Of a DNA stretch of 64,000 nt, positions 4,545 to 58,388 are shown in pieces. A program made the position numbers and the translations under genes. Positions within the stretch are counted from its first letter, which is position 1; each line of letters begins with the position of its first letter. Source of the stretch: a virus (lineage: Duplodnaviria > Heunggongvirae > Uroviricota > Caudoviricetes); the IMG/VR virus record IMGVR_UViG_2851938318_000001. One strand, 5' to 3'. The notes beneath the pieces are model-generated. The model made no database searches. It was not told the DNA's origin and saw only the letters and a program-made list of their open reading frames with translations.

Positions 4545-4587
4545 GTGCTTTCCTTTGTTTTTTAAACAAATTGTTTTCTAGTATTAG

Positions 4588-5337
4588 TTAATTAGATAGG
4601 GGATCAATAAACCGCCGTGCTTCTTCCAGTTCTTCTGGAAAGTGGGCGGAAATAAGGCGCTCTGGAACGATTTCCATTAGCCAGATAGCGGAGAAAATTG
4701 CGCGTATGCGCTTGCTGCGAGGGATGGTGCGCAAACGCTCCAGAATCCACTCAAAATAGCTTTCCTGAATCGGGTTGAACTGCATGTCTCCCATATGCTT
4801 AAAGCTAACAAGAGAGTCATCCAGACGGGTTGTTGCGCGTCTGGCTAATTTCTCTTCAAATATCTCAATCAGTTCTGGCTGCCACAAATGCTGTGGGCGC
4901 GGCAGCTTGTCCCACAGCCGTCGTGCAGCTGCGGAAAGAACGGTGGAGATAAAGTAGTCGTATGAGCAGCAATAGCGATCCGCAAACTGGCGTGCTTTCC
5001 ATAGCGACGTTTTATTGGCAGTCGACAACTCCTGATAAGGCAGGCGTTTTAACCCGGTGGTGAACGGAGCTGTTTCAAAGTGTTCGCGACCGTGCGTCAG
5101 CATGATATTTGAGTACTGACGTTTGTATGCCTCCGTAAAAAGACAGGTGGCCATGAGAGGATGCATGTCGCGGTAATCAAACCACTTCGTCTCGAAGAGT
5201 TCAGCCTCGTCTTTACAGCGCGACAAACCAATGTTTTCAGCGACCCACTTGTCCATAACAGCGGTATTCCACTCTGTCATGAAGTCGTACTGGTCGTTGT
5301 CGATGGTATCGAAAAAGATTTGGCTCATGTGGCTCAC
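4588..5337 (-). CDS. hypothetical protein of the replication module (possible initiator or helicase loader)
   Basis: 249-aa ORF immediately upstream of and co-oriented with the helicase gene; no recognisable motif. Confidence 0.4.
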   Translation of the reverse strand: MSHMSQIFFDTIDNDQYDFMTEWNTAVMDKWVAENIGLSRCKDEAELFETKWFDYRDMHPLMATCLFTEAYKRQYSNIMLTHGREHFETAPFTTGLKRLPYQELSTANKTSLWKARQFADRYCCSYDYFISTVLSAAARRLWDKLPRPQHLWQPELIEIFEEKLARRATTRLDDSLVSFKHMGDMQFNPIQESYFEWILERLRTIPRSKRIRAIFSAIWLMEIVPERLISAHFPEELEEARRFIDPLSN

Positions 5338-6430: not shown

Positions 6431-6790
6431 TTAACCTTTCTTCATCAACTCTCGTTTGATTTCATCGGTACGCATCGTGACATCGGCAGCGGTGATCGCC
6501 TCATTCAATTTCACGATGTCCTCGATTTCCTGCGGTGACTTCTCTGCCAGATGGAAAATGGCTGCTCGAATCACGTCAGAACGAGTGAACTTCTCGAAGC
6601 GAGGGATGAACTTCATCATCTCCAGCAGTTCGAAGTATTCGTCCTCCAGTGACATTGTGCGGCTTTTAATTTTCTCTTTGCCACGAGTCGGGCGTCCCTG
6701 TGGTCTGACTGGTTGGCGCAAAGGAGTTGTGTTCTTAGCCGGTGCATCAGGCTCTTTGCGCTTTGCTAGGTCACCCATTTTCATGGACAT
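6431..6790 (-). CDS. small centromere-binding partner of ParA (ribbon-helix-helix, ParG-like)
   Basis: 119 aa; basic N-terminal tail then a beta-strand/helix pattern (TMSLEDEYFELLEMM...RSDVIRAAIFHL); start overlaps the parA stop. Confidence 0.5.
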   Translation of the reverse strand: MSMKMGDLAKRKEPDAPAKNTTPLRQPVRPQGRPTRGKEKIKSRTMSLEDEYFELLEMMKFIPRFEKFTRSDVIRAAIFHLAEKSPQEIEDIVKLNEAITAADVTMRTDEIKRELMKKG

Positions 6791-7458
6791 TATTCTTCTT
6801 CCTCCAGACTCAACAGATAATCTACAAATTCTTCAAACTCGGCTTCCGCCTTTTTGTCGCGCTCGCTACCGGTCATTTCAAAGATAGAACGACCAGACTC
6901 TTCCGCATCATCATAGACGTTGCGGTTATATAGATTGACTGGCGCAGACTCGATTCCAAACGTCTCAACAATCTCTTTAGCCGCCAGAATGCGAGACACT
7001 TGTGATGGCAAAGCCGGGCACTGGTTCATGACCGCGCGGACCTTCACTTTATCGTTTACATTGCGAACATTGTCGATAATAGGATCGATGTCACGTAAAG
7101 ATTTCAAATCACGACGCTTAGGACGCAGCGGGATAATGATAACGTCAGCCATCAGCATCGCTTGTCGCTGAATTTCGGAGTCGAAGCCACCAGCATCTAC
7201 CACTACAAACTCAGCTCTACCCTGAAGCGATTTTAGGTGCTTAATGATGTCATCCTGAACGTATGCAAAAGGAATCAGCTCAAGGTCTTCGTTCTGTCGA
7301 CGGTCTTCACACCAGCTCGTTGTCGTGCGCTGAATATCTATATCGGTAATATAAACCTTCTTCTTCTTTTTGACTTTCAGGCAAACGGCAATTTGCTGGG
7401 CAACGGTGGATTTGCCAGGCCCGCCCTTTGTGCCGCCAACCACAAAGATCTTGGTCAT
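6790..7458 (-). CDS. parA: ParA-family partition ATPase (small, type Ib)
   Basis: 222 aa; deviant Walker A GGTKGGPGKST; second motif VVVDAGG. Confidence 0.8.
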   Translation of the reverse strand: MTKIFVVGGTKGGPGKSTVAQQIAVCLKVKKKKKVYITDIDIQRTTTSWCEDRRQNEDLELIPFAYVQDDIIKHLKSLQGRAEFVVVDAGGFDSEIQRQAMLMADVIIIPLRPKRRDLKSLRDIDPIIDNVRNVNDKVKVRAVMNQCPALPSQVSRILAAKEIVETFGIESAPVNLYNRNVYDDAEESGRSIFEMTGSERDKKAEAEFEEFVDYLLSLEEEE

Positions 7459-7633
7459 TGGAGAGTTCCCTTTGCGTATATAATTATCGTCTGAAACAAC
7501 TTGTTTTCTTATATGTGATATAGCCTAAATGCCTACGGCTGCGGTGTAAAGGTTAAATGGTAGGTTGTGATTAACAATTTGAACCGCCCCGGAAATCCTG
7601 GAGACTAAACTCCCTGAGAAAGAGGTAAACAGG

Positions 7634-7960
7634 ATGACTAAAAATACTCGTTTTTCCCCCGAAGTCCGTCAGCGGGCGATTCGTATGGTTCTGGAAAGTC
7701 AGGATGAATATGACTCACAGTGGGCGGCAATTTGTTCCATTGCCCCAAAGATTGGCTGTACGCCGGAGACTCTGCGTGTCTGGGTTCGCCAGCATGAGCG
7801 GGATACCGGGGGCGGTGATGGTGGGCTCACCAGCGCTGAACGTCAGCGTCTGAAAGAGCTGGAACGTGAAAATCGTGAACTGCGCCGCAGTAACGATATC
7901 CTTCGCCAGGCTTCCGCTTATTTTGCGAAGGCGGAGTTCGACCGCCTCTGGAAAAAATGA
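7634..7960 (+). CDS. IS3-family transposase OrfA (HTH)
   Basis: 108 aa; A-run at the orfA/orfB overlap consistent with -1 frameshifting. Confidence 0.85.
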
Positions 7961-8847
7961 TGCCACTGCTGGATAAGCTGCGTGAGCAGTACGGGGTCGG
8001 ACCGGTATGCAGCGAACTGCATATTGCCCCGTCAACGTATTACCATTGTCAGCAACAGCGACATCATCCGGATAAACGCAGTGCCCGTGCGCAGCACGAC
8101 GACTGGCTGAAGAGAGAGATACAGCGCGTATACGATGAAAATCATCAGGTGTACGGTGTGCGTAAAGTCTGGCGTCAGTTGTTACGGGAAGGAATCAGGG
8201 TGGCCAGATGTACAGTGGCACGTCTCATGGCGGTTATGGGACTTGCCGGTGTTCTCCGGGGTAAAAAGGTCCGTACGACCATCAGCCGGAAAGCCGTTGC
8301 CGCAGGCGACCGCGTAAACCGTCAGTTCGTGGCAGAACGACCTGACCAGCTGTGGGTGGCTGATTTTACTTACGTCAGCACATGGCAGGGCTTCGTCTAT
8401 GTGGCGTTTATCATTGATGTGTTTGCCGGATACATCGTGGGGTGGCGGGTCTCATCGTCTATGGAAACGACATTCGTGCTGGATGCGCTGGAGCAGGCGT
8501 TGTGGGCCCGTCGTCCGTCTGGCACCATCCATCACAGCGATAAAGGCTCTCAGTATGTGTCACTGGCCTATACGGAGCGACTAAAAGAAGCCGGATTACT
8601 GGCATCAACAGGGAGTACAGGCGACTCGTATGACAACGCGATGGCTGAGAGCATCAATGGTCTTTACAAAGCGGAGGTAATACACCGTAAGAGCTGGAAA
8701 AACCGTGCAGAAGTGGAACTGGCCACACTAACGTGGGTGGACTGGTATAACAATCGACGATTGCTGGGAAGGCTGGGCCATACTCCTCCGGCAGAAGCAG
8801 AAAAAGCTTATTATGCTTCCATCGGAAACGATGATCTGGCAGCCTGA
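7957..8847 (+). CDS. IS3-family transposase OrfB (DDE catalytic domain)
   Basis: 296-aa ORF in the -1 frame relative to OrfA. Confidence 0.85.
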
Positions 8848-9089
8848 GTTCACAGATAAAACACTCTCCAGGAAACCCGGGGCGGTTCAATTGGCAATCA
8901 TAGCTTGTATTTGTCTGTTGAAAAAAGTAACAATGACCTCTATATTACAAGTACGGTGATATGCCGTACACAATTTGATAATGCACACGTAATGGGCTAT
9001 AGCCTTTTAAAGTAATTTTTGAGTCGAAAACTCAGTTTGAACAGAGGAGATTGATGGCCTTCCTACATCACGGCCATCAGGAGGAATAC

Positions 9090-9359
9090 ATGTCAGCACT
9101 AAAAAAGCAGCGCATCGATTTGAGATTAACCGATGACGATAAAAGCATCATCGAGGAAGCTGCCGCAATGTCTAACCAGAGCATTACTCAGTTTATGGTT
9201 AGCAGTGCATCTGAACGTGCCGTGAAAGTTATAGAGCAACACCGTAGACTAGTTCTGAATGAAGAATCCTGGAATCTGGTTATGGACGCTATAAGCAATC
9301 CTCCGGCACCGAACGACAAGCTGAAACGAGCTGCTGATCGTCTGAAAAGCATGGAGTAG
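9090..9359 (+). CDS. DUF1778-type antitoxin (TacA-like)
   Basis: Start chosen at ATG 9090 preceded by AGGAGG; about 89 aa; immediately upstream of the GNAT toxin gene. Confidence 0.65.
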   Translation: MSALKKQRIDLRLTDDDKSIIEEAAAMSNQSITQFMVSSASERAVKVIEQHRRLVLNEESWNLVMDAISNPPAPNDKLKRAADRLKSME

Positions 9360-9366
9360 TTTACTC

Positions 9367-9888
9367 GTGAGCAATACAACGATAGAGATTTTCTCTGGAG
9401 AGAAAGATTATGATCTAAACGGTTTTGATTGCGGCGAAGAGTCACTAAACGCCTTTTTAGCCAACCACTTAAAAAGGCAGCATGAGGGAAAAATTCTTCG
9501 TGCTTATGTGCTTTGCACTCAAGAAGAAAGGCCAAAAGTGTTAGGATATTACACTTTGTCAGGTAGTTGTTTTGAAAAGGAGTCCTTACCTTCAAGAAGC
9601 AAACAAAAGAAGGTTCCTTATCGGAATGTTCCAAGTGTTACTTTGGGTAGGCTGGCTTTGGACAAGCCCCTTCAAGGTCAAGGATTTGGCTCAATGCTTG
9701 TAACACATGCAATGCGCGTTGTGTACAATGCATCTCTTGCTGTAGGCATTCATGGACTTTTCGTTGAGGCGTTAAATGACAAAGCCAAGGCGTTTTATAA
9801 AAGTTTAGGCTTTATCCAGCTGGTTGGTAACAACGAGCGTTCTTTGTTCTATCCTACAAAATCTATCGAAAAATTGTTCGAAGAATAA
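9367..9888 (+). CDS. GNAT-family acetyltransferase toxin (TacT-like)
   Basis: 173 aa; acyl-CoA-binding motif QGQGFGSMLV; GTG start 8 nt after antitoxin stop. Confidence 0.65.
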   Translation: MSNTTIEIFSGEKDYDLNGFDCGEESLNAFLANHLKRQHEGKILRAYVLCTQEERPKVLGYYTLSGSCFEKESLPSRSKQKKVPYRNVPSVTLGRLALDKPLQGQGFGSMLVTHAMRVVYNASLAVGIHGLFVEALNDKAKAFYKSLGFIQLVGNNERSLFYPTKSIEKLFEE

Positions 9889-11541: not shown

Positions 11542-14500
11542 TCAGTTACTTGTTGCCCCAACAGTACCTGCAAATTTCAGCCATTGACCTGACGGACTTC
11601 TATTACTACGGTAGTGATAAACGAGGATTGCGTTTGTAATCCCACCATAGTCAGCTTTGTGTGACGTCGTTAAACGAATTGTATAATCACCGTTAGGTAG
11701 ATTAAAAACTTCGATTATAGATTCTGCTAATTCTACAGCACCAAATCCCGTTATATTGTTGATACTGCCAGCATTGAATCCCATAGCATCGCCAAAGCCA
11801 ATCCAATAACTTTTGCTAAACGCCCCATTTGATTTTAGGTGGCTAATGAATGCGGACAAGCTCATGCCCATATCCCCACCTGAAACAGAGGAAGTTCGCA
11901 CAGTCATGCTTGGAAGAGCACTGCTCTTCACATAGGAACTTAGAAGGTTTGTTACCTCTGTTTTCGTGTAAGCATTAACATTAGCCGCAGTCAAAGTTAT
12001 ATCGGCAGAGCCATCAAACGCCACACCAGCAATTTTCCTTGCTGTCTGCAATTTTGTGGCGGTTGCGGCATTACCAGTAGTGTTCTGGTTCCCATCTGCA
12101 TTCACACCTGGGATGCTGTCTTTTTTAGTATATATCTGAGTCCAGTCCTCTTCGAACCCATAGCCATCACGTGATGAACGGTAATACAATCCACCATTTT
12201 TATAATGCGCTCGGATTTGGAGAGTCCGACAACTACCTACGCCTGTATAAAAATTTGCAACGATATAAGAATCCCCGGAGCGTGTAACATTATACGCACC
12301 TGATTCGGCATTCCACGGGACCGCACCACTAGTATCGGCATAAGTTCCAGTAGCGCGTCGAGCAAAAGCAGATACATTTGCAGCTGTTAGTGTTATATCA
12401 GCAGAACCATCAAAAGACACGCCGCTTATTTTTCTAGCAGTTTGCAACTTCGTAGCTGTTGAAGCATTACCGTTCAAGCTGCCATTTACGCCACCAGTAA
12501 CATTTAGTCCATTACCAATGGACACAGCACCGCTGGTATTGTTAATTGTAATCGGTCGCAAACCGTTCCATGAACCTAATGTGTCTCCTGATGCTGTTAG
12601 CATGAAATATGTGTTCGACCCATCATTACGGATAAAGAACCCAAAGCTACCGTAAGCAATGCGGAAACCATTTGCATATTTTGAAATGATCTCGCCAGAA
12701 GATGTCAAACCTCCAGATAATGTCCCACCGGTAAGAGGTAATGCACCAACGTCAGATGCTGTTGGTTTATTTTTCGTGTTATATACTCTTCGCCATCCTG
12801 GAGAATAATCTGTGCCATTAAATACATAGATAAACTCCGCATTAGTGAGAGCACCAGAGACACTCGTCGTTGTGGCCGTTGTTATACGGATCGTATAATT
12901 GTTTGAGCTACTACCGTTATTAAATACCTCTATAACAGCTCCTGCCAATGGAATAACGCCACAACCAGTTTCACTATTTGGTATGGTTGCACTATTGGCA
13001 TAGGCCCACGCACATCGAGCAATCCATGACTTTGTGTTAAATGCTCCATTATTTTGCAATAACGTCACTAACTGTGCTGTTGTTATTGCTCCGCCATTAC
13101 TTCCTGTAGTTAACCAACCAGTAGGAGATGCCGGGCAACCTATATTTGCTGGCGATAAGGAAATATTTGCCGAGCCGTCAAACGACACCCCATTAATAGT
13201 ACGCGCAGTCTGCAACTTCGTAGCAGTAGCCGCGTTGCCCGTTGTATTCTGATTACCAGTCGTATTAACACCTGGCAAATTAATATTCGCAGTACCATCA
13301 AAGCTCACGCCGCCGATAGTTCTTGCCGTCTGAAGTTTTGTAGCAGTTGCAGCATTACCAGTGGTGTTCTGATTACCCGTAGTATTTACACCTGGAAGGT
13401 TGATATTTGCAGAACCGTCGAAACCAACTCCACCGATAGATCTTGCCGTCTGCAATTTCGTTGCTGTACTTGCATTACCATTTAATGTTCCGGTGATCCC
13501 ACCAGTAACAGACAACGGACCTGAAACTGTTCCTCCGGTTGTTGGCAGTGCACCAATATCTAACGGCGTCGGTTTCTGATGTGTGCTATACATCGTATAA
13601 ACAACACCATCGGTAACGCTGGAAGGCTTACTCGCTGAATATGTTGGCGATGTATAAATAGAAACTGTCGCATTTGCAGTACAATCCCAATGGATATTTA
13701 CACTCGTCGCATAATTGCCAATCTCAACGTAAATATCATATGTATCGCCGGATGTGTTGATCCAGGCGAAATTCGTTAATCCGACAGCTGTACGCTTCCA
13801 CAAAGCCCCGGTAATTCCTTTGGGGTTTCCATTGCCTGCTCGTAGAACCAGTTCTGAAATGCCTGCCTGATGTGGGGAACCGACGTTGTAACCAGCGCCA
13901 CCAATCAATGCGATGTAAACGATGGAACTCGCTTGTGGCATGGTAACCGTAGCCAGTTTGAACCACCCAGCCCCGCCAGAGAAAGACATCGTTACTGAAT
14001 TTAAAGTACCAATATCTTTCGGCGTTAATGTTATATCCGCAGTCAATGCTTTTCCGTTAACTTTTCGGTTAGATGGCACCCTGCTATTCGCATTGTCATT
14101 GGCTGCTTTAACTGCTTTTGGCGTTGCGGCCAGCGATTCACTGGTGCTGTCGACAGCACTGCTAAGTTTCACAACACCTTTGGTGGTAAGGCTTGCGTCT
14201 TCCATCGCAACTGCACCGGCAATCTCTTCAGCACGATCAGCGGCAGCTTCCGCACGGGTCGCAGCGGATTCAGCAGCAGTTTTGCTCTGAGATGCAGCTG
14301 TCGCACTGCCTGCCGCCTCTGTTGCCTTCGTGGATGCCGTTGAAGCACTGCTCTTCGCTGCTGATGCCTGCTTGGTCGCCTCATCTTTTGAAGCGGATGC
14401 TGAGGTGGCTGATGCAGACGCAGAACTTGCAGATTCAGCAGCTGCCGCCTTAGAGGAAGCAGCATTGTCTTCTGAGGTCTTTGCATTTGTTTCAGAGGTT

Positions 14501-15660: not shown

Positions 15661-18600
15661 TCACAGAAGGCCAATTCTCACTCGGAGGACGTTGTTATCG
15701 TCATAAACGTCAATCCGCTGACCATTTATGACCAATCGCCCATTGCCGCCGCTATTACCGTTAATCTCAAGCGTTCCATTTTTGCCGAACCGCCATCCAG
15801 ATCTACCGCTAACAAAATTGGTAGATTGCAGATCGCCTACTTTTGCATTGGTGATTGTGCCATCCTTGATATACGCACCATTCATATAGGCGATACTGTT
15901 TTCGATAACAAATGGCGTGGTGATCTTCCCGTTAACAGAGTTGACCAAACCAAATCTGTCCGCCTGCACCAAAAACTGAGAAAGACCGGTGGTGTCGATA
16001 CCAAGCGCAATACCGGCAACATACTTCTGCCCTCCGCTCGTTGAAGTCTCCATTTTCAACGTCCACGCGGTTGAGACTTTTTTGTTGGTATCAGCAATGG
16101 CTGTTGCCTGCTGTTGAATTGTCGCGGTATTTCCATCCACCTCTGCTTTCAGAGTATCGATTCGCCCACTTAGAGCATTATCTGCCTGCGTTCTCGCTGT
16201 CGTTTCAGTTGTGACCGCCGCAGAAATGTTGGCTGCTGTTTGAGACTCTAAGTTTGTGATTTGAGTCGCCAGTGCCGCATCTTGCTCTGTACGCGTTTTC
16301 GTTTCGGTTGCTACAGCCGCTTTAATATCCTCTTTGTATTGAGAGGTCAGCTTGGTGATCTGAGATGACAACGCCGAGTCAGCATCAGTTCGAGCCTGCG
16401 TTTCAACTGCAACGGCCGCACTAATATCTTTCGCAGTCTGTGCTTTTAAACTTGAAACCTCTTTTGTTAAAGCGGTATCACCATCTGCACGAGCCGTTGT
16501 TTCTCTGGCAAGAGATGCCTCGAGATCATTAGCTTTTGCTGTAAGAGACGTAATCTGAGTGGACAATGCACTATCGGCATCAGTCCTTGCCTTTGTCTCT
16601 ACAGCAACCGCTGCGGCAATGTCAGTTCCGGTCTGCGCCCGCAGGATGTTAATTTCTCGTGAGAGCGCCTCGTCAGCACTTGCTCTAGCCTCCTGCTCCT
16701 GAGTGATGGCGGCGGATATATCACCGTCAACCTTTGCTTGAAGCTGGTTTATTTGTTTGGCTAAGGCAGAGTCCCCGCTTGCTCGAGCCTCCTGCTCACT
16801 ACGTATTGCAGCAGAAATATCATCATCAACCTTTGCCTGAAGTTGGGTGATCTGGCTTGCCAGAGCCGAATCTTCCGTTGCTCGGGCTTCTTGCTCCTCC
16901 TTAATAGCTGCGACGATATCGTTGCTTACTTTCGACTCAAGCTGAGTGATCTGTGTCGTCAGAGCTTCATCGGCAGATGTACGAGCCTCCTGCTCTGTAC
17001 TAATCGCCGCGCTGATATCTCCTTCAAACTTAGATTGCAGCTGAGTGACACGCTTTGCCAACGCTTCATCGCCATCGGCACGAGCGGTGGACTCTTCCAG
17101 AATACTGGCCTTAATGTCTTCGCCAATTTCTACGCGAATTTCCTCAACCTTCGTGGCCATTGCAGACATATCATCAGCAAAGGTTTTCTGTGTTGTTGCG
17201 ATCTTCGCGTTATTGACCATCTGCTTGTGCTGGTCTTCATCTTGACGAAGAGCCAGGTCAATGTTTGTTTTGGCCAACGCCTCAATGTTCGTAGTCAGCT
17301 CTGCACTTGCACGATCGACCTCTGCAACCGTCTTTTTCATTTCTTCAACGGCAGCGGAGCTTTCCTCTACCGTTGACTGCAACACTTCCAGTTGTTTAGC
17401 GTTTGCAGCATCGCCTTCAACACGAGCCTCGCTTTCCTTAGCAATAAGAGCCGCCGCTTCATCTCTTGCAGCCTTTATTGCCTCGACTGTATTAGCGAGA
17501 GCTTTATCGTGTTCAGATACGGCGTTTTCGATTTCAACAATTGCAGCATCAGTAGCATCAATTTTTTCAAACGCTTCATTGACCTTGTCGATCGTTGCCG
17601 AAACCTCACCTTTAAGCTCGGTTTGTGCGTTCTCCAAAGCATCGCTACGCTCGTTGAATTTTATTTCAAAATCCGCGAGGTTATCGCTGAACTGCTTATC
17701 TAATTCAGCTATATCTTCCTTAACGTCGTTTACCGCCCCCTCCAAAGATTCGACGCTCTGGTTGATATGCTCATTTAACTCGTCAACTGCTTCTTGAGAG
17801 GCTTTGCTGTTGATGTCCTCAAGCAGAGCCTGACCAAGCTCGGAAGATGTAATTTTGCCAGTCAGGAACGACAGTACATCGCGAGTTGTCGCCTCTGTAC
17901 CCAAGTTTGAGTTCGGAGGACTTAACATACCTCGCTTGTTCGATGCTCGAACCCAGTAATACCACGTTTCACTATCCCCAAGACCAGCATGTGTAAAGGT
18001 GGTGCTTGCAGACTCTGCGATCAGTTTCGCCGTATCCAGATTGTTGGTCTGGGATGCGTAAACATTAATGTGATCAAGGTCTACCGAATCTGGATTAACC
18101 CAATTCAGTATCACATTACGATAGTCTCCAACGGCCGTTAATGACGTTGGTGCATCCGGCGGTGTCATTGTGCCCAGCACCTGATAAACGGTACTGATAA
18201 TTTCTGTTTTTTTACCGTTGAATGAAACCGCATACAGTTGGAAGTCGTAGCGTCCATTCTCCGCGACATTAACGATTTCGTATTGCTCTTCGGTTACACG
18301 CGCCGATTGCCAGTTCGATACATTGTTTTCATCAGAACGTCGCCAACTGATCCAATACTCTGGAGATTTCCCTTCCCATGTTGCAGTCAGTTTTACTGAC
18401 AGGTTGCCCGGGCTTGAGAGATAAGTCCCTTCAGTGATTTGCAGATTAGATGGCTTGGAGTAAGTTGGGTCCAATACCGTCGTATTCTGCGGGATCAGCG
18501 TTGCACCATTGTCGATTGCCTCATATTTAGACGGATTGTTCTCAACAGCGGTGATGTCAAAGCTACCCGGCGTTTCCCCCTGCGCGATGTTAACGATGCG

Positions 18601-19530
18601 AACGCGCATAGGTTCGAGGTCTGGTTCTGTAATAGTCCAGACGCCGTTCAAAACAGGCGTTTCAGCCGAAGACAGGGCTTTTGAAAACGTAACTTTTGTT
18701 ATATTTTCGCCAGTTTCAAGAACATCGCGTTCAACGATTTTGCCTTCCTGATTCAGTATTCGAATAAAGCAGCCGCCTTTGGCTAACGACACAGGCGCAT
18801 CGAGTGTGACGCTGTTTTTGGTAAACGCCACAATTCGACCTGAGTTACGTTTGCCTGCGCGATATTTGTTCTGAATCAGAACGGTTTCACCAGGCATCAG
18901 AAATGACGCGTCTAAGCCGGCAGTAAATGTAATTACATCCGACTCCATTCTGGAGGTATATAAAAGCCACAAACCAACTCGGTGAGCCTGCCCTCGGCTT
19001 GTACAGCCAAATGCTACGACTTCTGTTTTACGCTCACCATAACGGCGCATTGCGTCCTGATCTTCGACGTACTCGATGTTTTGCTTATAACCGTCCTCCT
19101 TGTTGTTGTAGGTTACGAGCGCAACGGATGGGCGATCTTTACGCGCAGAACCTTTATAGGTAAACAATCCATCTTTGACGTTAGAGTTGGTAAACATCAT
19201 TACCGGATCTGATGGGCTATCCTGCATGATGTTAACCATCCCACCAGCCCAAAACACCATGCCGCGGAATGCTCCGGCAATATCCTGAATTAGCCGGTAT
19301 GCGTCCTGTCGACTGGTGATCTGCGTATTGATTGCAAAGCGTTTCTCTTTGCCACCAAAGCCATCATCGACCTCTTCGTCACAATATCGACCAATCTGGT
19401 ACAACTGGCCAAGGTCAATCATAGATTCCGACACATACTGACCAAGGCCATATCGAGCATTGGTCAGCAAATCAAAGAGAATCCACGCGGGGTTCGAAGA
19501 AGACAACAGCTTAAAAGTGCCATCCCATAC
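15661..19530 (-). pseudogene. host-specificity (tail tip) protein J, C-terminal fragment, cut by IS insertion
   Basis: Reading frame stays open up to the IS boundary at 19530 and reads V-WDGTFKLLSSSNPAWILFDLL, contiguous with the lambda J-like N-terminal fragment; central coiled-coil repeats (ISAAI/EQEARA). Confidence 0.8.
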
Positions 19531-19572
19531 TGAACCGCCCCGGGTTTCCTGGAGAGTGTTTTATCTGTGAAC

Positions 19573-20463
19573 TCAGGCTGCCAGATCATCGTTTCCGATG
19601 GAAGCATAATAAGCTTTTTCTGCTTCTGCCGGAGGAGTATGGCCCAGCCTTCCCAGCAATCGTCGATTGTTATACCAGTCCACCCACGTTAGTGTGGCCA
19701 GTTCCACTTCTGCACGGTTTTTCCAGCTCTTACGGTGTATTACCTCCGCTTTGTAAAGACCATTGATGCTCTCAGCCATCGCGTTGTCATACGAGTCGCC
19801 TGTACTCCCTGTTGATGCCAGTAATCCGGCTTCTTTTAGTCGCTCCGTATAGGCCAGTGACACATACTGAGAGCCTTTATCGCTGTGATGGATGGTGCCA
19901 GACGGACGACGGGCCCACAACGCCTGCTCCAGCGCATCCAGCACGAATGTCGTTTCCATAGACGATGAGACCCGCCACCCCACGATGTATCCGGCAAACA
20001 CATCAATGATAAACGCCACATAGACGAAGCCCTGCCATGTGCTGACGTAAGTAAAATCAGCCACCCACAGCTGGTCAGGTCGTTCTGCCACGAACTGACG
20101 GTTTACGCGGTCGCCTGCGGCAACGGCTTTCCGGCTGATGGTCGTACGGACCTTTTTACCCCGGAGAACACCGGCAAGTCCCATAACCGCCATGAGACGT
20201 GCCACTGTACATCTGGCCACCCTGATTCCTTCCCGTAACAACTGACGCCAGACTTTACGCACACCGTACACCTGATGATTTTCATCGTATACGCGCTGTA
20301 TCTCTCTCTTCAGCCAGTCGTCGTGCTGCGCACGGGCACTGCGTTTATCCGGATGATGTCGCTGTTGCTGACAATGGTAATACGTTGACGGGGCAATATG
20401 CAGTTCGCTGCATACCGGTCCGACCCCGTACTGCTCACGCAGCTTATCCAGCAGTGGCATCAT
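19573..20463 (-). CDS. IS3-family transposase OrfB
   Basis: 296-aa ORF identical to the copy-1 OrfB. Confidence 0.85.
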
Positions 20464-20786
20464 TTTTTCCAGAGGCGGTCGAACTCCGCCTTCGCAAAAT
20501 AAGCGGAAGCCTGGCGAAGGATATCGTTACTGCGGCGCAGTTCACGATTTTCACGTTCCAGCTCTTTCAGACGCTGACGTTCAGCGCTGGTGAGCCCACC
20601 ATCACCGCCCCCGGTATCCCGCTCATGCTGGCGAACCCAGACACGCAGAGTCTCCGGCGTACAGCCAATCTTTGGGGCAATGGAACAAATTGCCGCCCAC
20701 TGTGAGTCATATTCATCCTGACTTTCCAGAACCATACGAATCGCCCGCTGACGGACTTCGGGGGAAAAACGAGTATTTTTAGTCAT
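20460..20786 (-). CDS. IS3-family transposase OrfA
   Basis: 108-aa ORF identical to the copy-1 OrfA. Confidence 0.85.
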
Positions 20787-20840
20787 CCTGTTTACCTCTT
20801 TCTCAGGGAGTTTAGTCTCCAGGATTTCCGGGGCGGTTCA

Positions 20841-21707
20841 TACCCCAGCGTAAGTGTTACTGGACTCGTTATAGTTTGAAGGTACTCGAATTTTTAGGCC
20901 ACGCACCAGATAAGAGCGAGATGGCATGGTGCTACCGAATTGCTCAGAGTTTACCTTCAATCCAACCAAAACAGAGTTTGGATAGTTCATCGGTGTATCG
21001 ACAATTTCCCCGATTGAATCCACCCATGTATCGTTATAGAGATACTGGCTACTGTTATCATCGGTAATACGGACTACACGAACCTTGTATGCGCGTCCAG
21101 GCTTAGGCAGCTTCAGCTCGTAGCTACGGTAATAAACGCCGGTCTTCTTTGCTGTTAGCTTAATGCCAACGCTTTTTTCACCTTCCGCGACCACATCTAC
21201 AAATGTTGAGTCGCCATTTGCTATCTGGAACTTGTACTCAACAGTCGTACCGTTCGTGTCACCAGTTTTTTTATCTATGCTTCGCAAAGAAGGAAACTTC
21301 ATGATGACACGAACCCGATCAGCTTCATCGTTATCGATTGAAACCGTTACATAATGTGTTTTTTTTAACTGGATATTGACGGATTTAGGCGTTTCAACGA
21401 AATCAAAGCCAGACATTGGAGTCTGGTCTTGTGAACCGTCGCGAAAATCCCATGTGATTCCGCTGAAGTTGGAGGAACCGTCTTCATTTACAATCGGCAG
21501 ATCGTCGATAAAAATAGATCTTGCGCCATTTACTAAGCCGCCAATTACCCCTTCCCCAAGAAGATCGAGGATAGCGGCCATTGCACGAGAATTTACGGTA
21601 TCGTCGGCTTCAACCGGTGTACGGCTGGAGCTTTTGCTGCTTTTTTTACCACCCGCACCGGCAATAAACAGCGGTAGCTTTTTCTTCTTGAACTGTTCCA
21701 TGTTCAA
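20841..21707 (-). pseudogene. host-specificity protein J, N-terminal fragment
   Basis: 289 codons ending ...VPSNYNESSNTYAGV exactly at the IS boundary; the stop codon is supplied by the IS end (TGA of TGAACC). Confidence 0.8.
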
Positions 21708-21718
21708 AAAATCCTTGT

Positions 21719-22312
21719 TTACATTAGCTGGTCAATCGTGATTGAAGAACTCACAACCTGTGAGCCAACCAGAATTTCCTCGCCATAGATAAGTTGTACT
21801 GGGTTGCCCTGGTTTTCTGTATTTTGAGGGCCGTCGAAATAATAAGAGTTCGAGTTATCTGCCTGTCTCACACTTTCGTTAGTGGCTTGCGGCGATATGA
21901 TTTGTGATATGCCGCCCATCATCAGTGACAAACCGAGAGGTGCTAAAGCAGGCATCACTACCGCCGATACAACCAACAAAGCGGCCCCTACTACCGTCTG
22001 AAACCACCCAAAAGCAGATCCACCGCTTCCTCGCGGAACAGGTGTAATGCGGATTTTGGCAATGTTGTCAGACTGCCCCATCATCTGATATTCACTTTCG
22101 TCAACAGACCACTTGTGGCCCTGTTTATTGGTGATCTGGATGTGGTAACTGTCATAGGTTTTGATATTGCGCTTCATCCATGCTTTAAACCCAGGCTTGT
22201 TGGCTTCAATTAAATCCAGAGCCTGTTTTGTATTGCGCACCTTTAGATGCCAGTGGCGACCAAAATGTTTAGCCATAGGGCCGCCAAGCTGCACATGAAC
22301 TAACTCAGACAC
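21719..22312 (-). CDS. tail assembly protein I-like
   Basis: 197 aa; C-terminal hydrophobic Gly/Ala-rich segment; position between K-like and J-like genes as in lambda. Confidence 0.75.
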   Translation of the reverse strand: MSELVHVQLGGPMAKHFGRHWHLKVRNTKQALDLIEANKPGFKAWMKRNIKTYDSYHIQITNKQGHKWSVDESEYQMMGQSDNIAKIRITPVPRGSGGSAFGWFQTVVGAALLVVSAVVMPALAPLGLSLMMGGISQIISPQATNESVRQADNSNSYYFDGPQNTENQGNPVQLIYGEEILVGSQVVSSSITIDQLM

Positions 22313-23124
22313 GTCTCATCTCCCTTGAGCAAGTCTCTGTGACGCAAGTGATGCGTCGTATGTTTCTGATACATTCCGCCGTAATAAGCACGACAACTAA
22401 GGCGGTCGATCTGGTGATGAAGAATCATTCCATCGCCGATATAAACCGCGCAGTGGTCAGGCATTTTCCCGTATTGGATAAAGAAGATGTCCCCACGTTG
22501 AGGCTCTGTTCCGGGCGCAAGACGCACCAATCCCTCGTTACGGTAGTTCTGATCGAGAATGTCGTTATCGCCGGTGTACCACGATGGAATATGCAGGTGT
22601 GCGTTCGGGTTTAGTTCGACGTTAAACTCACGCTTCAAATAGTCCCGACACAACATCCAGCAATCGAATACGCCAAATACATACGGTCTGCCCAGGTATG
22701 GCATTTCGAAACCATCAGGTGTGATCACATTCATCTCGCTAAAATGGAAAGGGGCATCTCCCTCAACATTCTTGCGAATAGCCAGAATCATCCACGGAAC
22801 TTCCGTCGCTTCGCAGCCTGCACGATCGGCATCAGATGCTTCTGCTGATTCATCAGTATGTGAATGCCAGATTGCGATAACATCACCCGCATCCTCTGCC
22901 GCCATAATGTCGTCAACGTGCATTACAAAAGTGTTCTGCTGGTTCTCCGAAACATTTCGCGCTTCCATAAAGCGATATTTGTCGCCATTAGTTCTAACCA
23001 GAAAGCCACACGCTTCATTAGGGTAGCGATTTATGGCGCAGAGATAGATTTGCTGCATAACGTCAGAGCCAAGCTCAGGGATTGCTTTATTACCCATACC
23101 GCGTAGCTCCAATAAATCCGCCAA
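22300..23124 (-). CDS. tail tip assembly protein K-like (JAB/MPN + NlpC/P60 domains)
   Basis: 274 aa; JAB-like EACGF...HSHTDES motif and Cys/His NlpC-like C-terminal part. Confidence 0.75.
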   Translation of the reverse strand: MADLLELRGMGNKAIPELGSDVMQQIYLCAINRYPNEACGFLVRTNGDKYRFMEARNVSENQQNTFVMHVDDIMAAEDAGDVIAIWHSHTDESAEASDADRAGCEATEVPWMILAIRKNVEGDAPFHFSEMNVITPDGFEMPYLGRPYVFGVFDCWMLCRDYLKREFNVELNPNAHLHIPSWYTGDNDILDQNYRNEGLVRLAPGTEPQRGDIFFIQYGKMPDHCAVYIGDGMILHHQIDRLSCRAYYGGMYQKHTTHHLRHRDLLKGDETCLS

Positions 23125-23820
23125 AATGGATCACACCGTCGGCAAAATAATTTCGACGCGCATTACAGGCGTCATAACGTTTTGTGCAGTAATCCGCACC
23201 AGACATAGACGTCTGCTGGTTATTTTTGTCGAAATATGGACCGGTATAGCCGCATTCTGGCCCTCGGTATTTCCACGGGCAGGTGTTTTTAATGATCTGA
23301 CGATACGGCAGTTGCACCCCCATCAAATCGAACACACTGGACAATTCAAACTCGACAACCTGATGAGTTTCGAGAGTTTTCTGTTCGATAAACCACATTT
23401 CATCCGGGAAATGTTGGTTTGGATCTGCTGTTGGGTTGCCGTCTTAAAATTAACGGCATCGAGGAAGCGAGCCAGCGTCATCTTGCGAATAATGCGGCAG
23501 CCAACAAGATCGTCGTTCGCCTGAACTTCCGCAGAGACGGTTCCGGCAAAGTTCGATACCTGAATTTTTGGACGTGGCAACGTTCCCTGGCCAGTTTTGT
23601 CAAAGCCTGATGCTTTGATTGGCCACGGCTCGTATGTCACTCCTTGCCAGACGACCGGTTGCATCAGTTCGTTTGTTCCGGCGTGGAAGAATAACTTCCC
23701 CCCTGAAGTTGTGTTCGACATATCCAGTACGAACAACTCAATGAGTGCAGAGGGAGATAAGCTCTGAATATCAGCTTTAATTCCCATTGTTTCATCCTTG
23801 AAATAAGTAGGCGCTAACAT
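23090..23820 (-). pseudogene. minor tail protein L-like, frameshifted
   Basis: Two overlapping ORFs (23323..23820 and 23090..23398) each match half of a lambda L-like protein; frames differ by one nt and join inside an A4/T4 run at about 23441..23452. Confidence 0.75.
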
Positions 23821-23869
23821 CCTGTCAGCGCCACAATGATAGTAAATTAGTACTTACTTATCCAGATGC

Positions 23870-24205
23870 TTAAGCCTCAAATACTTGTCTGAATGGAGCG
23901 GTTAATACTGCGTACCCTTGATATCGCTTGACCGTATGACTGTCGCATACAACTACAATCCGTTTTCCTCTTGGATTAACCCAATAGAACGACTCAACGC
24001 CTGCTCGCTCAGTCAGGAAGTCATCGATTGCATTAATTTCGTTGTATGATCTGGTAAAGGTTAACGACCATTCTTCTTTAATACGATTAAGACCTTGAGC
24101 CTGTCGCTGCTCGTAGTCATCACCAAAATTAAGTACCGTTACATTCGGTTTTACGCTTTTTTCAGATTCGTAATCTGGATACCAATTAAACGTTTGTCTT
24201 TCCAT
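23870..24205 (-). CDS. minor tail protein M-like
   Basis: 111 aa; position between tape measure and L. Confidence 0.7.
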   Translation of the reverse strand: MERQTFNWYPDYESEKSVKPNVTVLNFGDDYEQRQAQGLNRIKEEWSLTFTRSYNEINAIDDFLTERAGVESFYWVNPRGKRIVVVCDSHTVKRYQGYAVLTAPFRQVFEA

Positions 24206-39711: not shown

Positions 39712-40602
39712 TTATGCCGGTAAAGCAATTTCTAACGGTTTATCCAAAGGTTGTTTGTCGAATGCCAGCAGTGGCAGCGTGTCAGGCAGTCGACGACCAA
39801 AGTCAGGGTTTCGATACACACCATACAACGGAGACGTAAAGCTCAGGTTGTGAATGTCCTTGAGCAGCTTCACAATGCTGGCCTCGTCCACCAGACTGTC
39901 GGCAATGTCCTGAATCGTCGTGCCACGATTCCGCCCAGCTTTTGCCAGGGAACTGTTCTTGTGGTAGTCCGCCACCAGATCACGCAGTGCACGGCGACGA
40001 CGTGACTCGCTCATTGCGAACAACTCTTTGACGATCGCCTCGTTATCACCCGGGTCGGAGCGGAAATGGCGCTGGAACACACGCAGTGCACTTTCATAGC
40101 TCTTCGGTCGCTCAGGGCGGATGAACTTGAACCCTGCTTTCATGGCGAAGGGATTGTATTTGCTCATCGAGGATTGGATCTCAATGATTGGCCGGTCATG
40201 CATCCTGCTAACCAGGTTAATCATTCGATAAGAGACGCCTACGCCACGGTACTGAGTATCCACAACTGAGCGGCTGATCACCGCAAAGTTGTTATTCACG
40301 TACCGGCCCCAGTACTGGTTAGCCACGGTGGTATTGGTGGTTGGTTTCAACTTAGGAAACATGCGATGGCGAGGTGCCAGCAGAAGTTTCGGGTAAGCCA
40401 TAACCACGACGCCCACCAGACGGTCATCCAGTTCGCAGCGATAGTATGTTGGCGCGAAAGGTTTGCCGTCTGTTTTGTAGTGAAGCGACTTAAGAGCGTG
40501 CCAGTCCTCTACAGTTCCCTTTGTGACAGTCATTCGCTCCAGAAAGTCCAGATGACGCGGAAACTCTTCAGGGCGGTAGCGTTTAATGATGATGTCCGTC
40601 AT
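39712..40602 (-). CDS. GNAT-like protein (putative acyltransferase fold)
   Basis: 296 aa; motif ISRSVVDTQYRGVGVSYRMINL resembles the GNAT acyl-CoA loop; start overlaps the ATPase stop by 4 nt. Confidence 0.35.
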   Translation of the reverse strand: MTDIIIKRYRPEEFPRHLDFLERMTVTKGTVEDWHALKSLHYKTDGKPFAPTYYRCELDDRLVGVVVMAYPKLLLAPRHRMFPKLKPTTNTTVANQYWGRYVNNNFAVISRSVVDTQYRGVGVSYRMINLVSRMHDRPIIEIQSSMSKYNPFAMKAGFKFIRPERPKSYESALRVFQRHFRSDPGDNEAIVKELFAMSESRRRRALRDLVADYHKNSSLAKAGRNRGTTIQDIADSLVDEASIVKLLKDIHNLSFTSPLYGVYRNPDFGRRLPDTLPLLAFDKQPLDKPLEIALPA

Positions 40603-46452: not shown

Positions 46453-46974
46453 ATGGTTAAAGACATCACCTACGGCATACCGGCTGAAGTCTGGCCGCGA
46501 GACTACGAACATGCTGAAAACATACTTATGTTCTGGCGGAAGAACAACATTCCTGTAAGAGTCACGCTTGAAGACGGTCAGGTGTTTTGCATGTACGTTC
46601 AGGGGACAATGCCTTCCCGCAATAAGCTAGATTTATGCCCGCTTCCATATGATAAAGAAAATCGTATAAGACTCCCACTTGAGCGCATTAGCACAATTGA
46701 ATCAGGTGTAATCGATGGCATTGCTCGCGAGTTCAAAGGTAGGCTAACAATACATCCAGACTATGTTGACAATCAGCCATCACGCCGTGACTTTTTTGCG
46801 ATATGTCGCAAGGCTTATCAAAACGACCAATCTATAAGGGTCTACATGGCAGACGGTCGTGAAATAGAAGGGGTGTCAAGAGGCGTTGATGCTTGCCAGG
46901 TCACTCTTAAGTTAGAAGACGGCAGAAAAATACTTGTTTTCTTCGATTGGGTTGAACGAATCCTTCCTTTTTAA
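46453..46974 (+). CDS. hypothetical protein with an internally duplicated domain
   Basis: 173 aa; two similar halves (IPVRVTLEDGQVF / IRVYMADGREIEGV). Confidence 0.4.
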   Translation: MVKDITYGIPAEVWPRDYEHAENILMFWRKNNIPVRVTLEDGQVFCMYVQGTMPSRNKLDLCPLPYDKENRIRLPLERISTIESGVIDGIAREFKGRLTIHPDYVDNQPSRRDFFAICRKAYQNDQSIRVYMADGREIEGVSRGVDACQVTLKLEDGRKILVFFDWVERILPF

Positions 46975-55096: not shown

Positions 55097-57130
55097 TTAC
55101 TTAACCTGGTGGCCAGGTTTAGCACCAGCATCCGGGCTTAACAGGAAGATATCTTTCCCGCCGGGGCCAGCAGCCATCACCATGCCTTCAGAGATACCGA
55201 AGCGCATTTTACGTGGTGCCAGGTTAGCCACCATAATGGTGTGACGACCAATCAGTGCCTGTGGATCTGGATAAGCGGAACGGATGCCTGAGAAGACATT
55301 ACGCTTTTCACCACCGAGATCCAGCGTCAGGCGAAGCAGTTTGTCAGAACCTTCTACAAACTCTGCGTTTTCAATCAGCGCCACGCGCAGGTCAACTTTG
55401 GCGAAGTCGTCAAAGGTGATAGTTTCCTGAATCGGGTCGTCAGCCAGTGGGCCAGTTACCGGTGCGGCTGTGGCTTTCACTTCTTCTTTGGATGCTTCCA
55501 CCAGTGCTTCAACCTGCTTCATATCGATGCGGTTATACAGTGCCTTGAACGGATTCACTTTATGGCCCAGCAGCGGTTGCTGGATACCATCCCAGGTCAG
55601 TTCTGTATTCAGGAATGCTTCTGCACGTTCAGTCAGTTTCGGCAGTACCGGCTTCAGGTACGTCATCAGCACGCGGAACAGGTTAATGCCCATAGAGCAA
55701 ATCGCCTGCAGATCGGCATCGCGTCCTTCCTGCTTCGCCACCACCCACGGAGCCTGTTCATCGACATAGCGGTTAGCCAGGTCAGCCAATGCCATGATTT
55801 CACGGATAGCTTTACCAAATTCGCGGCTTTCCCACGCTTCACCAATCACTTCAGCGGCATCAGTGAAGGTTTTGTACAACTGCGGGTCAGCCAATTCGCT
55901 TGCCAGCACGCCGTCAAAACGCTTGTTGATAAAGCCCGCATTACGAGAGGCCAGGTTAACCACTTTGTTCACGATATCGGCATTCACGCGCTGAACGAAA
56001 TCCTCCAGGTTGAGATCGATATCATCAATGCGCGAAGAGAGTTTCGCAGTGTAGTAGTAACGCAGGCTGTCGGCGTCAAAATGATTCAGCCAGGTGCTGG
56101 CTTTAATAAAGGTGCCGCGAGACTTGGACATCTTCGCGCCGTTCACCGTCACATAGCCGTGAACAAACAGGTTGGTCGGCTTGCGGAAGTTGCTGCCTTC
56201 CAGCATGGCAGGCCAGAACAGGCTGTGGAAGTAAACAATATCTTTACCGATGAAGTGGTACAGCTCGGCGGTGGAGTCTTTCTTCCAGTATTCATCGAAG
56301 CTGGAGGTGTCGCCGCGTTTGTCGCACAGATTCTTGAAGGAACCCATGTAGCCAATCGGCGCGTCCAGCCAGACGTAGAAATATTTGCCCGGTGCGTTCG
56401 GAATTTCAAAACCGAAGTACGGCGCATCGCGGGAGATATCCCACTGTTGCAGACCAGATTCAAACCACTCCTGCATTTTGTTTGCCACCTGCTCCTGCAA
56501 CGCACCGCTGCGGGTCCATGCCTGCAACATTTCGCTGAAAGAAGGCAGATCAAAGAAGAAGTGTTCGGAATCACGCATTACCGGCGTAGCACCAGAAACT
56601 ACCGATTTCGGCTCGATCAGTTCAGTAGGGCTGTATGTCGCGCCGCAGACTTCACAGTTATCGCCGTATTGATCCGGCGCTTTACATTTCGGGCATGTGC
56701 CTTTCACAAAACGGTCCGGCAGGAACATGCCTTTTTCCGGGTCGTACAGCTGAGAGATGGTGCGGTTTTTAATAAAACCGTTCTCTTTCAGGCGAGTATA
56801 GATAAGCTCGGACAACTGACGGTTCTCTTCGCTGTGCGTCGAGTGATAGTTGTCATAGCTGATGTTAAAGCCTGCAAAATCAGTCTGGTGTTCCTGACTC
56901 ATTTCGCCAATCATCTGTTCCGGTGTGATACCAAGCTGCTGTGCTTTCAGCATGATCGGTGTGCCGTGGGCATCGTCGGCACAGATGAAATTAACCTCGT
57001 GGCCGCGCATTCGCTGGTAACGAACCCAGACATCAGCCTGGATGTGCTCCAGCATATGGCCGAGGTGGATTGAGCCGTTAGCGTACGGCAGCGCGCACGT
57101 CACCAGAATTTTCTTCGCGACTTGGGTCAT
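55097..57130 (-). CDS. metG: methionyl-tRNA synthetase
   Basis: 677 aa from [26 protein letters not shown] (HIGH motif), KMSKS motif present; the 720-aa track ORF has an N-terminal extension upstream of the real start. Confidence 0.95.
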
Positions 57131-57287: not shown

Positions 57288-58388
57288 ATGAGCGAGTCCA
57301 AATCGCCGGATGCCCTGAGAGCAATGGTAGCCGGTACGCTGGCTAATTTTCAGCACCCAACCCTGAAACACAATCTGACTACGCTTAAAGCGTTACACCA
57401 TGTTGCGTTGATGGATGACACACTGCATGTCGAACTAATCATGCCTTTCGTGTGGAATAAGCCTTTTGAAGACCTGAAAGAGCAATGTAGTGGTGATCTG
57501 CTCCGTATCACTGGCGCAAAGGCTATTGACTGGAAGCTGTCGTACAACATTGCCACGCTTAAGCGCGTCAAAAACCAACCAGGCATTAATGGCGTGAAGA
57601 ACATTATCGCCGTCAGCTCAGGCAAGGGCGGCGTTGGTAAATCCTCCACGGCGGTAAACCTGGCACTGGCGTTGGCTGCTGAAGGTGCGAAAGTTGGTAT
57701 TTTGGATGCCGATATCTACGGGCCATCAATTCCAACCATGCTTGGCGCGGAAAACCAACGTCCAACCTCACCGGACGGTACTCACATGGCACCGATTATG
57801 TCTCATGGACTGGCAACCAATTCAATTGGTTATCTGGTAACTGACGACAATGCGATGGTGTGGCGTGGTCCGATGGCGAGCAAGGCGTTAATGCAGATGT
57901 TGCAGGAAACTCTATGGCCTGATCTGGACTATCTCGTTCTCGATATGCCGCCGGGTACTGGTGATATTCAGCTGACGCTGGCGCAGAACATTCCTGTAAC
58001 TGGTGCTGTTGTGGTAACTACGCCGCAAGATATCGCGCTGATCGATGCGAAGAAAGGCATTGTGATGTTCGAAAAAGTCGAAGTGCCGGTACTGGGTATC
58101 GTCGAAAACATGAGTGTGCATATTTGCAGTAACTGCGGTCATCACGAGCCAATTTTTGGCACCGGTGGCGCACAGAAGCTGGCCGAGAAATACAACACGC
58201 AGTTGTTAGGCCAAATGCCACTTCATATCTCTCTTCGTGAAGATCTGGATAACGGAACACCAACCGTTATTAGTCGTCCAGATAGCGAATTTACGGCTAT
58301 TTATCGTGACCTCGCAGATCGCGTTGCTGCCCAAATGTATTGGCAAGGTGAAGTAATACCTGGCGAAATCGCATTCCGCGCAGTGTGA
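57288..58388 (+). CDS. apbC: iron-sulfur cluster carrier ATPase Mrp/ApbC
   Basis: 366 aa; deviant Walker A SGKGGVGKSS; CxxC near the C-terminus; divergent from metG as in E. coli. Confidence 0.9.
   Translation: MSESKSPDALRAMVAGTLANFQHPTLKHNLTTLKALHHVALMDDTLHVELIMPFVWNKPFEDLKEQCSGDLLRITGAKAIDWKLSYNIATLKRVKNQPGINGVKNIIAVSSGKGGVGKSSTAVNLALALAAEGAKVGILDADIYGPSIPTMLGAENQRPTSPDGTHMAPIMSHGLATNSIGYLVTDDNAMVWRGPMASKALMQMLQETLWPDLDYLVLDMPPGTGDIQLTLAQNIPVTGAVVVTTPQDIALIDAKKGIVMFEKVEVPVLGIVENMSVHICSNCGHHEPIFGTGGAQKLAEKYNTQLLGQMPLHISLREDLDNGTPTVISRPDSEFTAIYRDLADRVAAQMYWQGEVIPGEIAFRAV

Follow-up and report, generated by a model that had tools for sequence, protein, structure and literature searches.

The 64,000-nucleotide virus record IMGVR_UViG_2851938318_000001, called the window below, raises the question of what becomes of a phage element whose tail-tip gene has been split by an insertion sequence (IS). 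In this window, a gene of the lambda J type is interrupted by a complete copy of IS629/IS1203, an element of the IS3 family, with a 3-bp target duplication. The window corresponds to positions 34546..98546 (reverse strand) of NZ_CP028430.1, i.e., plasmid pRM9131-1 of Escherichia coli RM9131 (cattle faeces; Salinas, California), which is a closed circular record of 117,123 bp. An earlier note on this DNA, made from the sequence alone, had proposed that the insertion leaves an element that is defective as a phage and could still be maintained. Our reading, to which we give a probability of about 0.88, is that a recent simple transposition knocked out the tail tip and that the element persists in plasmid mode.

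The insertion in gene J

The IS is 1310 bp long and has the same orientation as J (Table 1). Its ends read TGAACCGCCCCGG...CCGGGGCGGTTCA, and the inverted repeats agree at 22 of the 25 terminal bases. The 25-mer end pattern occurs at four sites in the window, against none expected (100 shuffles), and these sites are the two ends of the copy in J and the two ends of a second copy. The triplet GTA (TAC on the plus strand) stands directly outside each end of the IS in J. The N-terminal fragment closes with ...NTYAGV and meets an immediate stop because the IS ends begin with TGA, the first three bases of the element. Its open reading frame (ORF) opens at TTG 21707, with ATG 21701 as the likely start and also the one chosen by RefSeq. 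The C-terminal fragment restarts as V-WDGTFKLLSSSNPAWILFDLL at 19530 and reaches its stop at 15661. Once the IS and one GTA are deleted, a single open frame of 1575 codons runs from ATG 21701 with zero internal stops. J is split after Val287, around nucleotide 866 of the gene. Every base statement of the earlier note on the IS and the two fragments holds. Its remark that the gene is split exactly in frame stands as far as the duplicated triplet is codon 287, but this is a 1-in-3 coincidence without special meaning.

The note had also proposed a comparison with related prophages whose J is uninterrupted. The empty site, ...GCTGGGGTATGGGATGGC..., is found with a single GTA in four of four relatives (pN1131_1, phage Cyrano, pSCU-306-2 and the plasmid of strain 3385), and the two J flanks of the window, when aligned to these relatives, overlap on exactly GTA. 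Since the triplet is single at the empty site in all four, the 3-bp repeat is no coincidental match but a genuine target-site duplication, as a simple transposition implies. The repaired J differs from the intact J of pN1131_1 at 6 of 1575 residues and from that of Cyrano at 9 of 1575; it has neither an indel nor a stop. These small differences argue that the IS is the sole lesion in J and that the insertion is probably recent.

The assignment of the split gene to the J type is confirmed by its domains, its alignment with lambda gpJ and the order of its neighbours. Pfam domains of the repaired protein are FNIII-A_GpJ (residues 102-236), Phage-tail_3 (358-521), fn3 (745-824) and Phage_Tail_Tip (1423-1557), with PF24801 (E=1.5e-29) and PF13550 (E=1.6e-33) in the N-terminal hub region. 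Residues 18-860 align continuously with the solved lambda gpJ (8iyk_J residues 3-836; E=4.7e-116) and with the F2-pyocin tail-fibre/tip protein (E=8.8e-132), and the insertion point, between ...NTYAGV and WDG..., falls within a well-conserved part of this alignment. The gene is part of an M-L-K-I-J block that follows a tape measure of 1520 amino acids (aa) and encodes, in this order, Phage_min_tail, Phage_tail_L, JAB+NlpC/P60, I-like and J proteins. The hub region and the lambda gene order are thus common to pRM9131-1, lambda (gpJ, PDB 8iyk and related) and F-type pyocin tips. In contrast, J of pRM9131-1 is interrupted, and it is longer (1575 aa against 1132 aa for lambda gpJ) because ~560 residues of repeats rich in Ala and Glu separate its fn3 region from the Phage_Tail_Tip domain. 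The 3' fragment left by the IS holds Phage-tail_3, fn3, these long, coiled-coil-like repeats and the C-terminal Phage_Tail_Tip. Lambda J is required to initiate tail assembly. Judged by its sequence, the product of the gene in pRM9131-1 would likewise form the tail tip and determine receptor specificity.

The IS itself was called an IS3-family element in the earlier note, with which our analysis agrees. Pfam identifies HTH_Tnp_1 in orfA (E=2.4e-12) and rve (E=9.3e-28), HTH_21 and rve_3 in orfB. The Rfam model ALIL (RF01497) is matched in full length with 121.5 bits, for a gathering score of 50. There is an A6 run at the end of orfA, where RefSeq marks a programmed frameshift, and a -1 frameshift is predicted to join orfA and orfB. 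Over its full length, the element shares 99.7-100% identity with the copies that Stx2 phages of O157:H7 carry under the name IS629, and its RefSeq product name is 'IS3-like element IS1203 family transposase'. Published IS629 insertions duplicate 3-4 bp of the target (PMC3271280); on the plasmid, the duplications are GTA at J and TTC and ATT at two other copies. In four O157:H7 strains, 62% of the IS629 locations are prophages or prophage-like elements (PMC3271280). By its sequence, the element appears to have every defining feature of IS629/IS1203 that was tested. It resembles the IS629/IS1203 of O157:H7, of other E. coli that produce Shiga toxin (STEC) and of Shigella in its length of 1310 bp, its TG...CA imperfect repeats, the orfA/orfB frameshift, ALIL and the 3-bp duplication. 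We found no structural difference from these; the target, J of an SSU5-related phage-plasmid, is alone specific to pRM9131-1. We also observed that the stop of orfB shares its reading frame with the remainder of J and that a TGA and, three codons later, a TAA lie between them (19531..19575, minus strand). With these two stops, no transposase-J fusion is made.

Table 1. Features of the interrupted tail-tip locus and of the second IS629 copy (positions in the window)
Feature	Position	Strand	Basis or remark
TipJ (lambda J-type) 5' fragment, codons 1-287	20841..21701	-	Translation; Pfam FNIII-A_GpJ; RefSeq gpJ pseudogene missing C-terminus
Target-site duplication beside the left inverted repeat (IRL), GTA (TAC on plus)	20841..20843	-	
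IS629/IS1203 (IS3 family), 1310 bp, complete, co-oriented with J	19531..20840	-	
IRL, TGAACCGCCCCGGAAATCCTGGAGA	20816..20840	-	
IRR (right inverted repeat), TGAACCGCCCCGGGTTTCCTGGAGA when followed inward along the plus strand	19531..19555	+	
IS orfA, 108 aa, HTH_Tnp_1	20460..20786	-	Pfam
IS orfB, 296 aa, HTH_21 + rve DDE core	19573..20463	-	Pfam; RefSeq WP_171877072.1 'programmed frameshift'
ALIL frameshift-stimulating pseudoknot over the orfA/orfB overlap	20389..20505	-	Rfam RF01497
Target-site duplication beside IRR, GTA	19528..19530	-	
TipJ 3' fragment, codons 287-1575 + stop; no own start at the junction	15661..19530	-	
Upstream tail-tip genes, lambda order M-L-K-I	21719..24205	-	
M-like	23870..24205	-	
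L-like	23090..23787	-	
K-like, JAB+NlpC/P60	22300..23097	-	
I-like	21719..22312	-	
Second IS629 copy, 100% identical, 3-bp duplication ATT	7580..8889	+	

A phage-plasmid with six copies of IS629

The earlier note had taken the element for a prophage. This part has to be abandoned: rather than being integrated as a prophage, pRM9131-1 is an extrachromosomal, circular, SSU5-related phage-plasmid close to Cyrano/pLF82. Its genes include repA, two of the ParB family, AAA ATPases and toxin-antitoxin pairs. Among 5,426 complete E. coli genomes, all 240 matches to J were on plasmids (of ~100-120 kb) and none was chromosomal. SSU5-related phage-plasmids of E. coli are said to correspond to the pSLy3/SSU5 supergroup of Pfeifer et al. 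J has 98.5% nucleotide identity to its SSU5-related phage-plasmid relatives, and its virion and early regions share 94-98% identity with the phages Cyrano, PhiR41_1 and CMS-2020a, as measured over a 25-kb stretch of tape measure, head and packaging genes and their neighbours; these three are the relatives that were measured, and the likeness to SSU5 itself is taken from the literature (PMC9928086). Cyrano is pLF82, an SSU5-like phage-plasmid present at ~5.5 copies per cell, which is reported to give DNase-protected genomes and siphovirus particles that are raised after ciprofloxacin (PMC9928086). Infectious virions on induction are known for Cyrano from the literature; for pRM9131-1 their loss is predicted.

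Like Cyrano/pLF82, PhiR41_1 and CMS-2020a, pRM9131-1 is a circular plasmid of the ~110-kb type with repA, partition genes and a set of siphovirus virion genes. The set comprises genes for the terminase, portal, capsid, tape measure and tail tip, but J is broken, and L is frameshifted in the window. It differs from them by six copies of IS629, one IS91-family element, the genes that these break and an IS-mediated inversion, and with its 117 kb it exceeds most relatives in size. Its own replication, partition and toxin-antitoxin genes explain how it can persist despite a broken tail gene. The proposal of a defective element that can be maintained is therefore strengthened by the plasmid context, which accounts for the persistence, whereas the defect as a phage is still something that we infer.

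To count the copies of IS629, we used the full plasmid, rebuilt from four pieces of the record. All six copies are 100% identical over 1310 bp. Three of them keep 3-bp duplications—TTC at a copy that splits a 5'-3' exonuclease gene, GTA in J, and ATT at an intergenic copy. Two inverted copies (record 12664-13973 and 111615-112924) have reciprocally exchanged flanks, AAC/ACT versus ACT/AAC, the hallmark of an inversion through recombination of two IS629 copies. The halves of one AAA ATPase gene adjoin these two copies, ~17 kb apart across the record origin, which fits such an inversion; the inversion spans the repA side of the plasmid. Among the copies at record 1349-2658 and 3996-5305, one lies beside repA and the other is the one in the exonuclease gene. 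The copy beside repA lacks a target duplication, and this points to a deletion or rearrangement next to it. In addition, the IS91-family element splits the gene of the ribonucleotide reductase alpha subunit (record range 16037-20180). Without its six IS629 copies the plasmid has 109,254 bp, within the 106-113 kb of its relatives. The insertion in J is thus one event in a recent burst of IS629 on pRM9131-1. It is the sole lesion within J but not the only one on the element, since five more IS629 copies and the IS91-family element are present and several of these break genes.

Two further candidates were rejected. The copy in J is not a product of recombination between copies, because both its flanks have the same triplet and are contiguous in relatives. 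A 296-aa ORF at 39712..40602, considered by its size as a further orfB, is annotated as a hypothetical protein and is without IS ends. The second copy in the window, flanked by its duplication at 7577..7579 and 8890..8892, lies in the intergenic space between an AAA ATPase operon (6790..7458, minus strand) and a DUF1778/GNAT toxin-antitoxin pair (9090..9888, plus strand). The antitoxin gene begins ~200 bp downstream of this copy, and the promoters of both neighbours may be disturbed.

Interrupted relatives and rival explanations

At least six of the 161 records that hold most of J are interrupted, pRM9131-1 included. In p19KM1803_1, an IS3-family element ('IS3 family transposase') of 1331 bp lies at ~nt 400 of J, with a 5-bp overlap. 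The element of pSCU-306-2, at ~nt 1472, has ~1305 bp and is also of the IS3 family ('IS3 family transposase'), whereas that of pTW10722_119, at ~nt 1518, is IS100. The plasmid of strain 3385 has ISEc52 (IS3 family, 1250 bp) at ~nt 3902, and pEC7518-111k has IS1203 in the opposite orientation at ~nt 4491. As in pRM9131-1, the IS knocks out J in these five relatives while the rest of the tail cluster is in place. They differ from pRM9131-1 in the position hit and, mostly, in the element, which indicates six independent events at six positions rather than shared ancestry.

We controlled for a hotspot by counting insertion-sized gaps in J and in the terminase-to-I block, for which plasmids of the family were sampled at even spacing. 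Interruptions of J (4.7 kb) were seen in 2 plasmids of the 42 sampled, and the terminase-to-I block (17.5 kb) had such gaps in 3 of ~50. In these samples, the enrichment of J per kb is ~3-fold and falls short of significance (P=0.15 by a Poisson test and P=0.23 by a conditional binomial test), and we therefore make no claim of a hotspot or of selection. According to a recent preprint (10.1101/2025.09.12.675607), the region of structural genes is avoided by ISEc9 insertions that bear resistance in elements of the SSU5 group, which fits with hits of the J type being rare and probably disabling. The 37-base junction between J and the IS was absent from genome_contigs, metagenome_contigs and viral_contigs, and in the E. 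coli and plasmid collections the interrupted allele was found in NZ_CP028430.1 only. Separately, in the relatives H66 (NZ_JBXSFF010000003.1) and H92 (NZ_CP081702.1), J matches the 4734-base query in two pieces, ~100 bp under its length; no IS is annotated in J of either, and both resemble in-frame length variants.

The following scenario would account for these results. IS629/IS1203 transposed by the ordinary IS3-family route into codon 287 of J, duplicating GTA, in an SSU5-related phage-plasmid of ~109 kb that gain of IS has enlarged to 117 kb. J is thereby cut to 287 residues, and the other 1288 codons, with the rest of the hub, the repeat stalk and the C-terminal tip-fibre domain, are left without a translation start of their own. 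The tail tip would then not be built and no infectious virions would be made. The element would persist as a plasmid by means of repA, the ParB-type partition genes and the toxin-antitoxin pairs. The insertion, its duplication, the identities of the IS and of J, the plasmid context and the burst are all shown by the sequences. Loss of tail assembly and of infectivity, with maintenance in the absence of virion production, is what we infer from this, and the insertion almost certainly stops the production of infectious particles.

This scenario has to be weighed against others. An assembly artefact, in which a copy of the IS was misplaced into J, would be favoured by the presence of six identical 1.3-kb repeats on the plasmid and by the homopolymer base in gene L at which the window and the public record differ (see below), since this means base-level errors in at least one version. 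Yet a wrong join would not create a duplication of a triplet that is single in four relatives, between seamless flanks of J. Moreover, the record is closed and circular, and its length without the IS copies lies in the range of the relatives, so that we regard an artefact as extremely improbable. It is also very hard to believe that the split J is still functional, i.e., that the 287-residue N-terminal fragment and a separately translated C-terminal fragment form the tip together. The C-terminal fragment is open from TTG 19506 or TTG 19470 and is annotated as a coding sequence (CDS), and read-through transcription is conceivable because the IS is co-oriented with J. Against this, the break is not at a domain linker but within the block that aligns continuously to gpJ and the F2-pyocin tip. 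In all 161 inspected records with most of the gene, it is in one piece except where an IS has split it. There is no obvious ribosome-binding site before 19470 (the sequence was read by eye), and the two stops after orfB bar the way to the in-frame remainder of J.

The lesion might instead be reversible if a host with the IS-excision enhancer (IEE) now and then excised the IS cleanly, restoring J in a subpopulation that releases infectious phage. IEE promotes the simple excision of IS629, IS1203 and IS600 in STEC, and restored lacZ in O121:H19 (PMC9397093); excision by IEE is also described in PMC9943667. Such excision needs an active transposase, and the IS in J is complete, with its transposase and frameshift signal intact, and has an intact 3-bp duplication, so that a clean excision would rebuild the gene. 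The breaks in the 5'-3' exonuclease, AAA ATPase and ribonucleotide reductase alpha genes and the inversion would, however, also have to be tolerated or reverted, and nothing suggests selection on such switching. We find a reversible lesion of this kind unlikely. Nor do we favour the idea that J is a preferred or selected target, with the loss of the tail tip favoured as a domestication step from phage-plasmid to plasmid. The six independent interruptions (two by IS1203, three by other IS3-family elements and one by IS100) would agree with it, but the excess of J over the terminase-to-I block is not significant, and a host whose element has lost J would still be lysed on induction, so that a benefit is not obvious; this, too, is improbable. 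A bolder version would make the interrupted J a reversible off-state, in which IS traffic toggles the element between plasmid-only and infectious in IEE-positive STEC and the J hits in the family reflect such toggling or selection for tail loss; we consider it quite improbable.

Several points nevertheless count against a simple transposition that ended virion production and left a plasmid. Some expression of the C-terminal fragment is possible, since it is open over 1281 codons from TTG 19506 and is a CDS in RefSeq. IS3-family elements are excised cleanly in STEC with IEE (PMC9397093), and given this, the defect of J may be incomplete across a population. As for the long-term maintenance of the broken element, it is a prediction, since the allele was found in one record only, and a literature search for strain RM9131 returned no paper mentioning it.

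Consequences for annotation and other features of the window

The insertion is a routine event, already known from the RefSeq annotation, which marks the IS as such and the 5' fragment of J as a gpJ pseudogene. RefSeq lists the 3' remnant as an ordinary CDS (15661..19470, from TTG; 'phage tail tip fiber protein', WP_249942480.1) with no pseudogene flag; it should be regarded as a remnant and not as a gene. The case is a clean example of a phage-plasmid whose phage functions are eroded by IS and whose plasmid functions retain it in the cell, and it matters little beyond bookkeeping. pRM9131-1 should not count as an active phage, and those typing phage-plasmids should expect a few percent of the members of this family to have virion genes broken by IS.

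The 64-kb window departs from the public record at a single base, in the L-type minor tail gene: of the run TTTTAAAG present in NZ_CP028430.1, one A is missing from the window (~23443-23446, minus strand). The missing base frameshifts the gene into the ORFs 23323..23820 and 23090..23398. No record carrying this 1-nt deletion was found in the E. coli or plasmid collections. Either one of the two versions has a sequencing error in the homopolymer, or the deletion is real and a second lesion of the tail.

Other genes of the window include a full-length metG (methionine--tRNA ligase; 55097..57130, minus strand) with a divergent gene for the iron-sulfur carrier ApbC (apbC; 57288..58388, plus strand), a chromosomal-type pair that is an unusual plasmid cargo. 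The accessory region encodes an FljA-like 'repressor of phase-1 flagellin' of 173 aa (46453..46974, plus strand).

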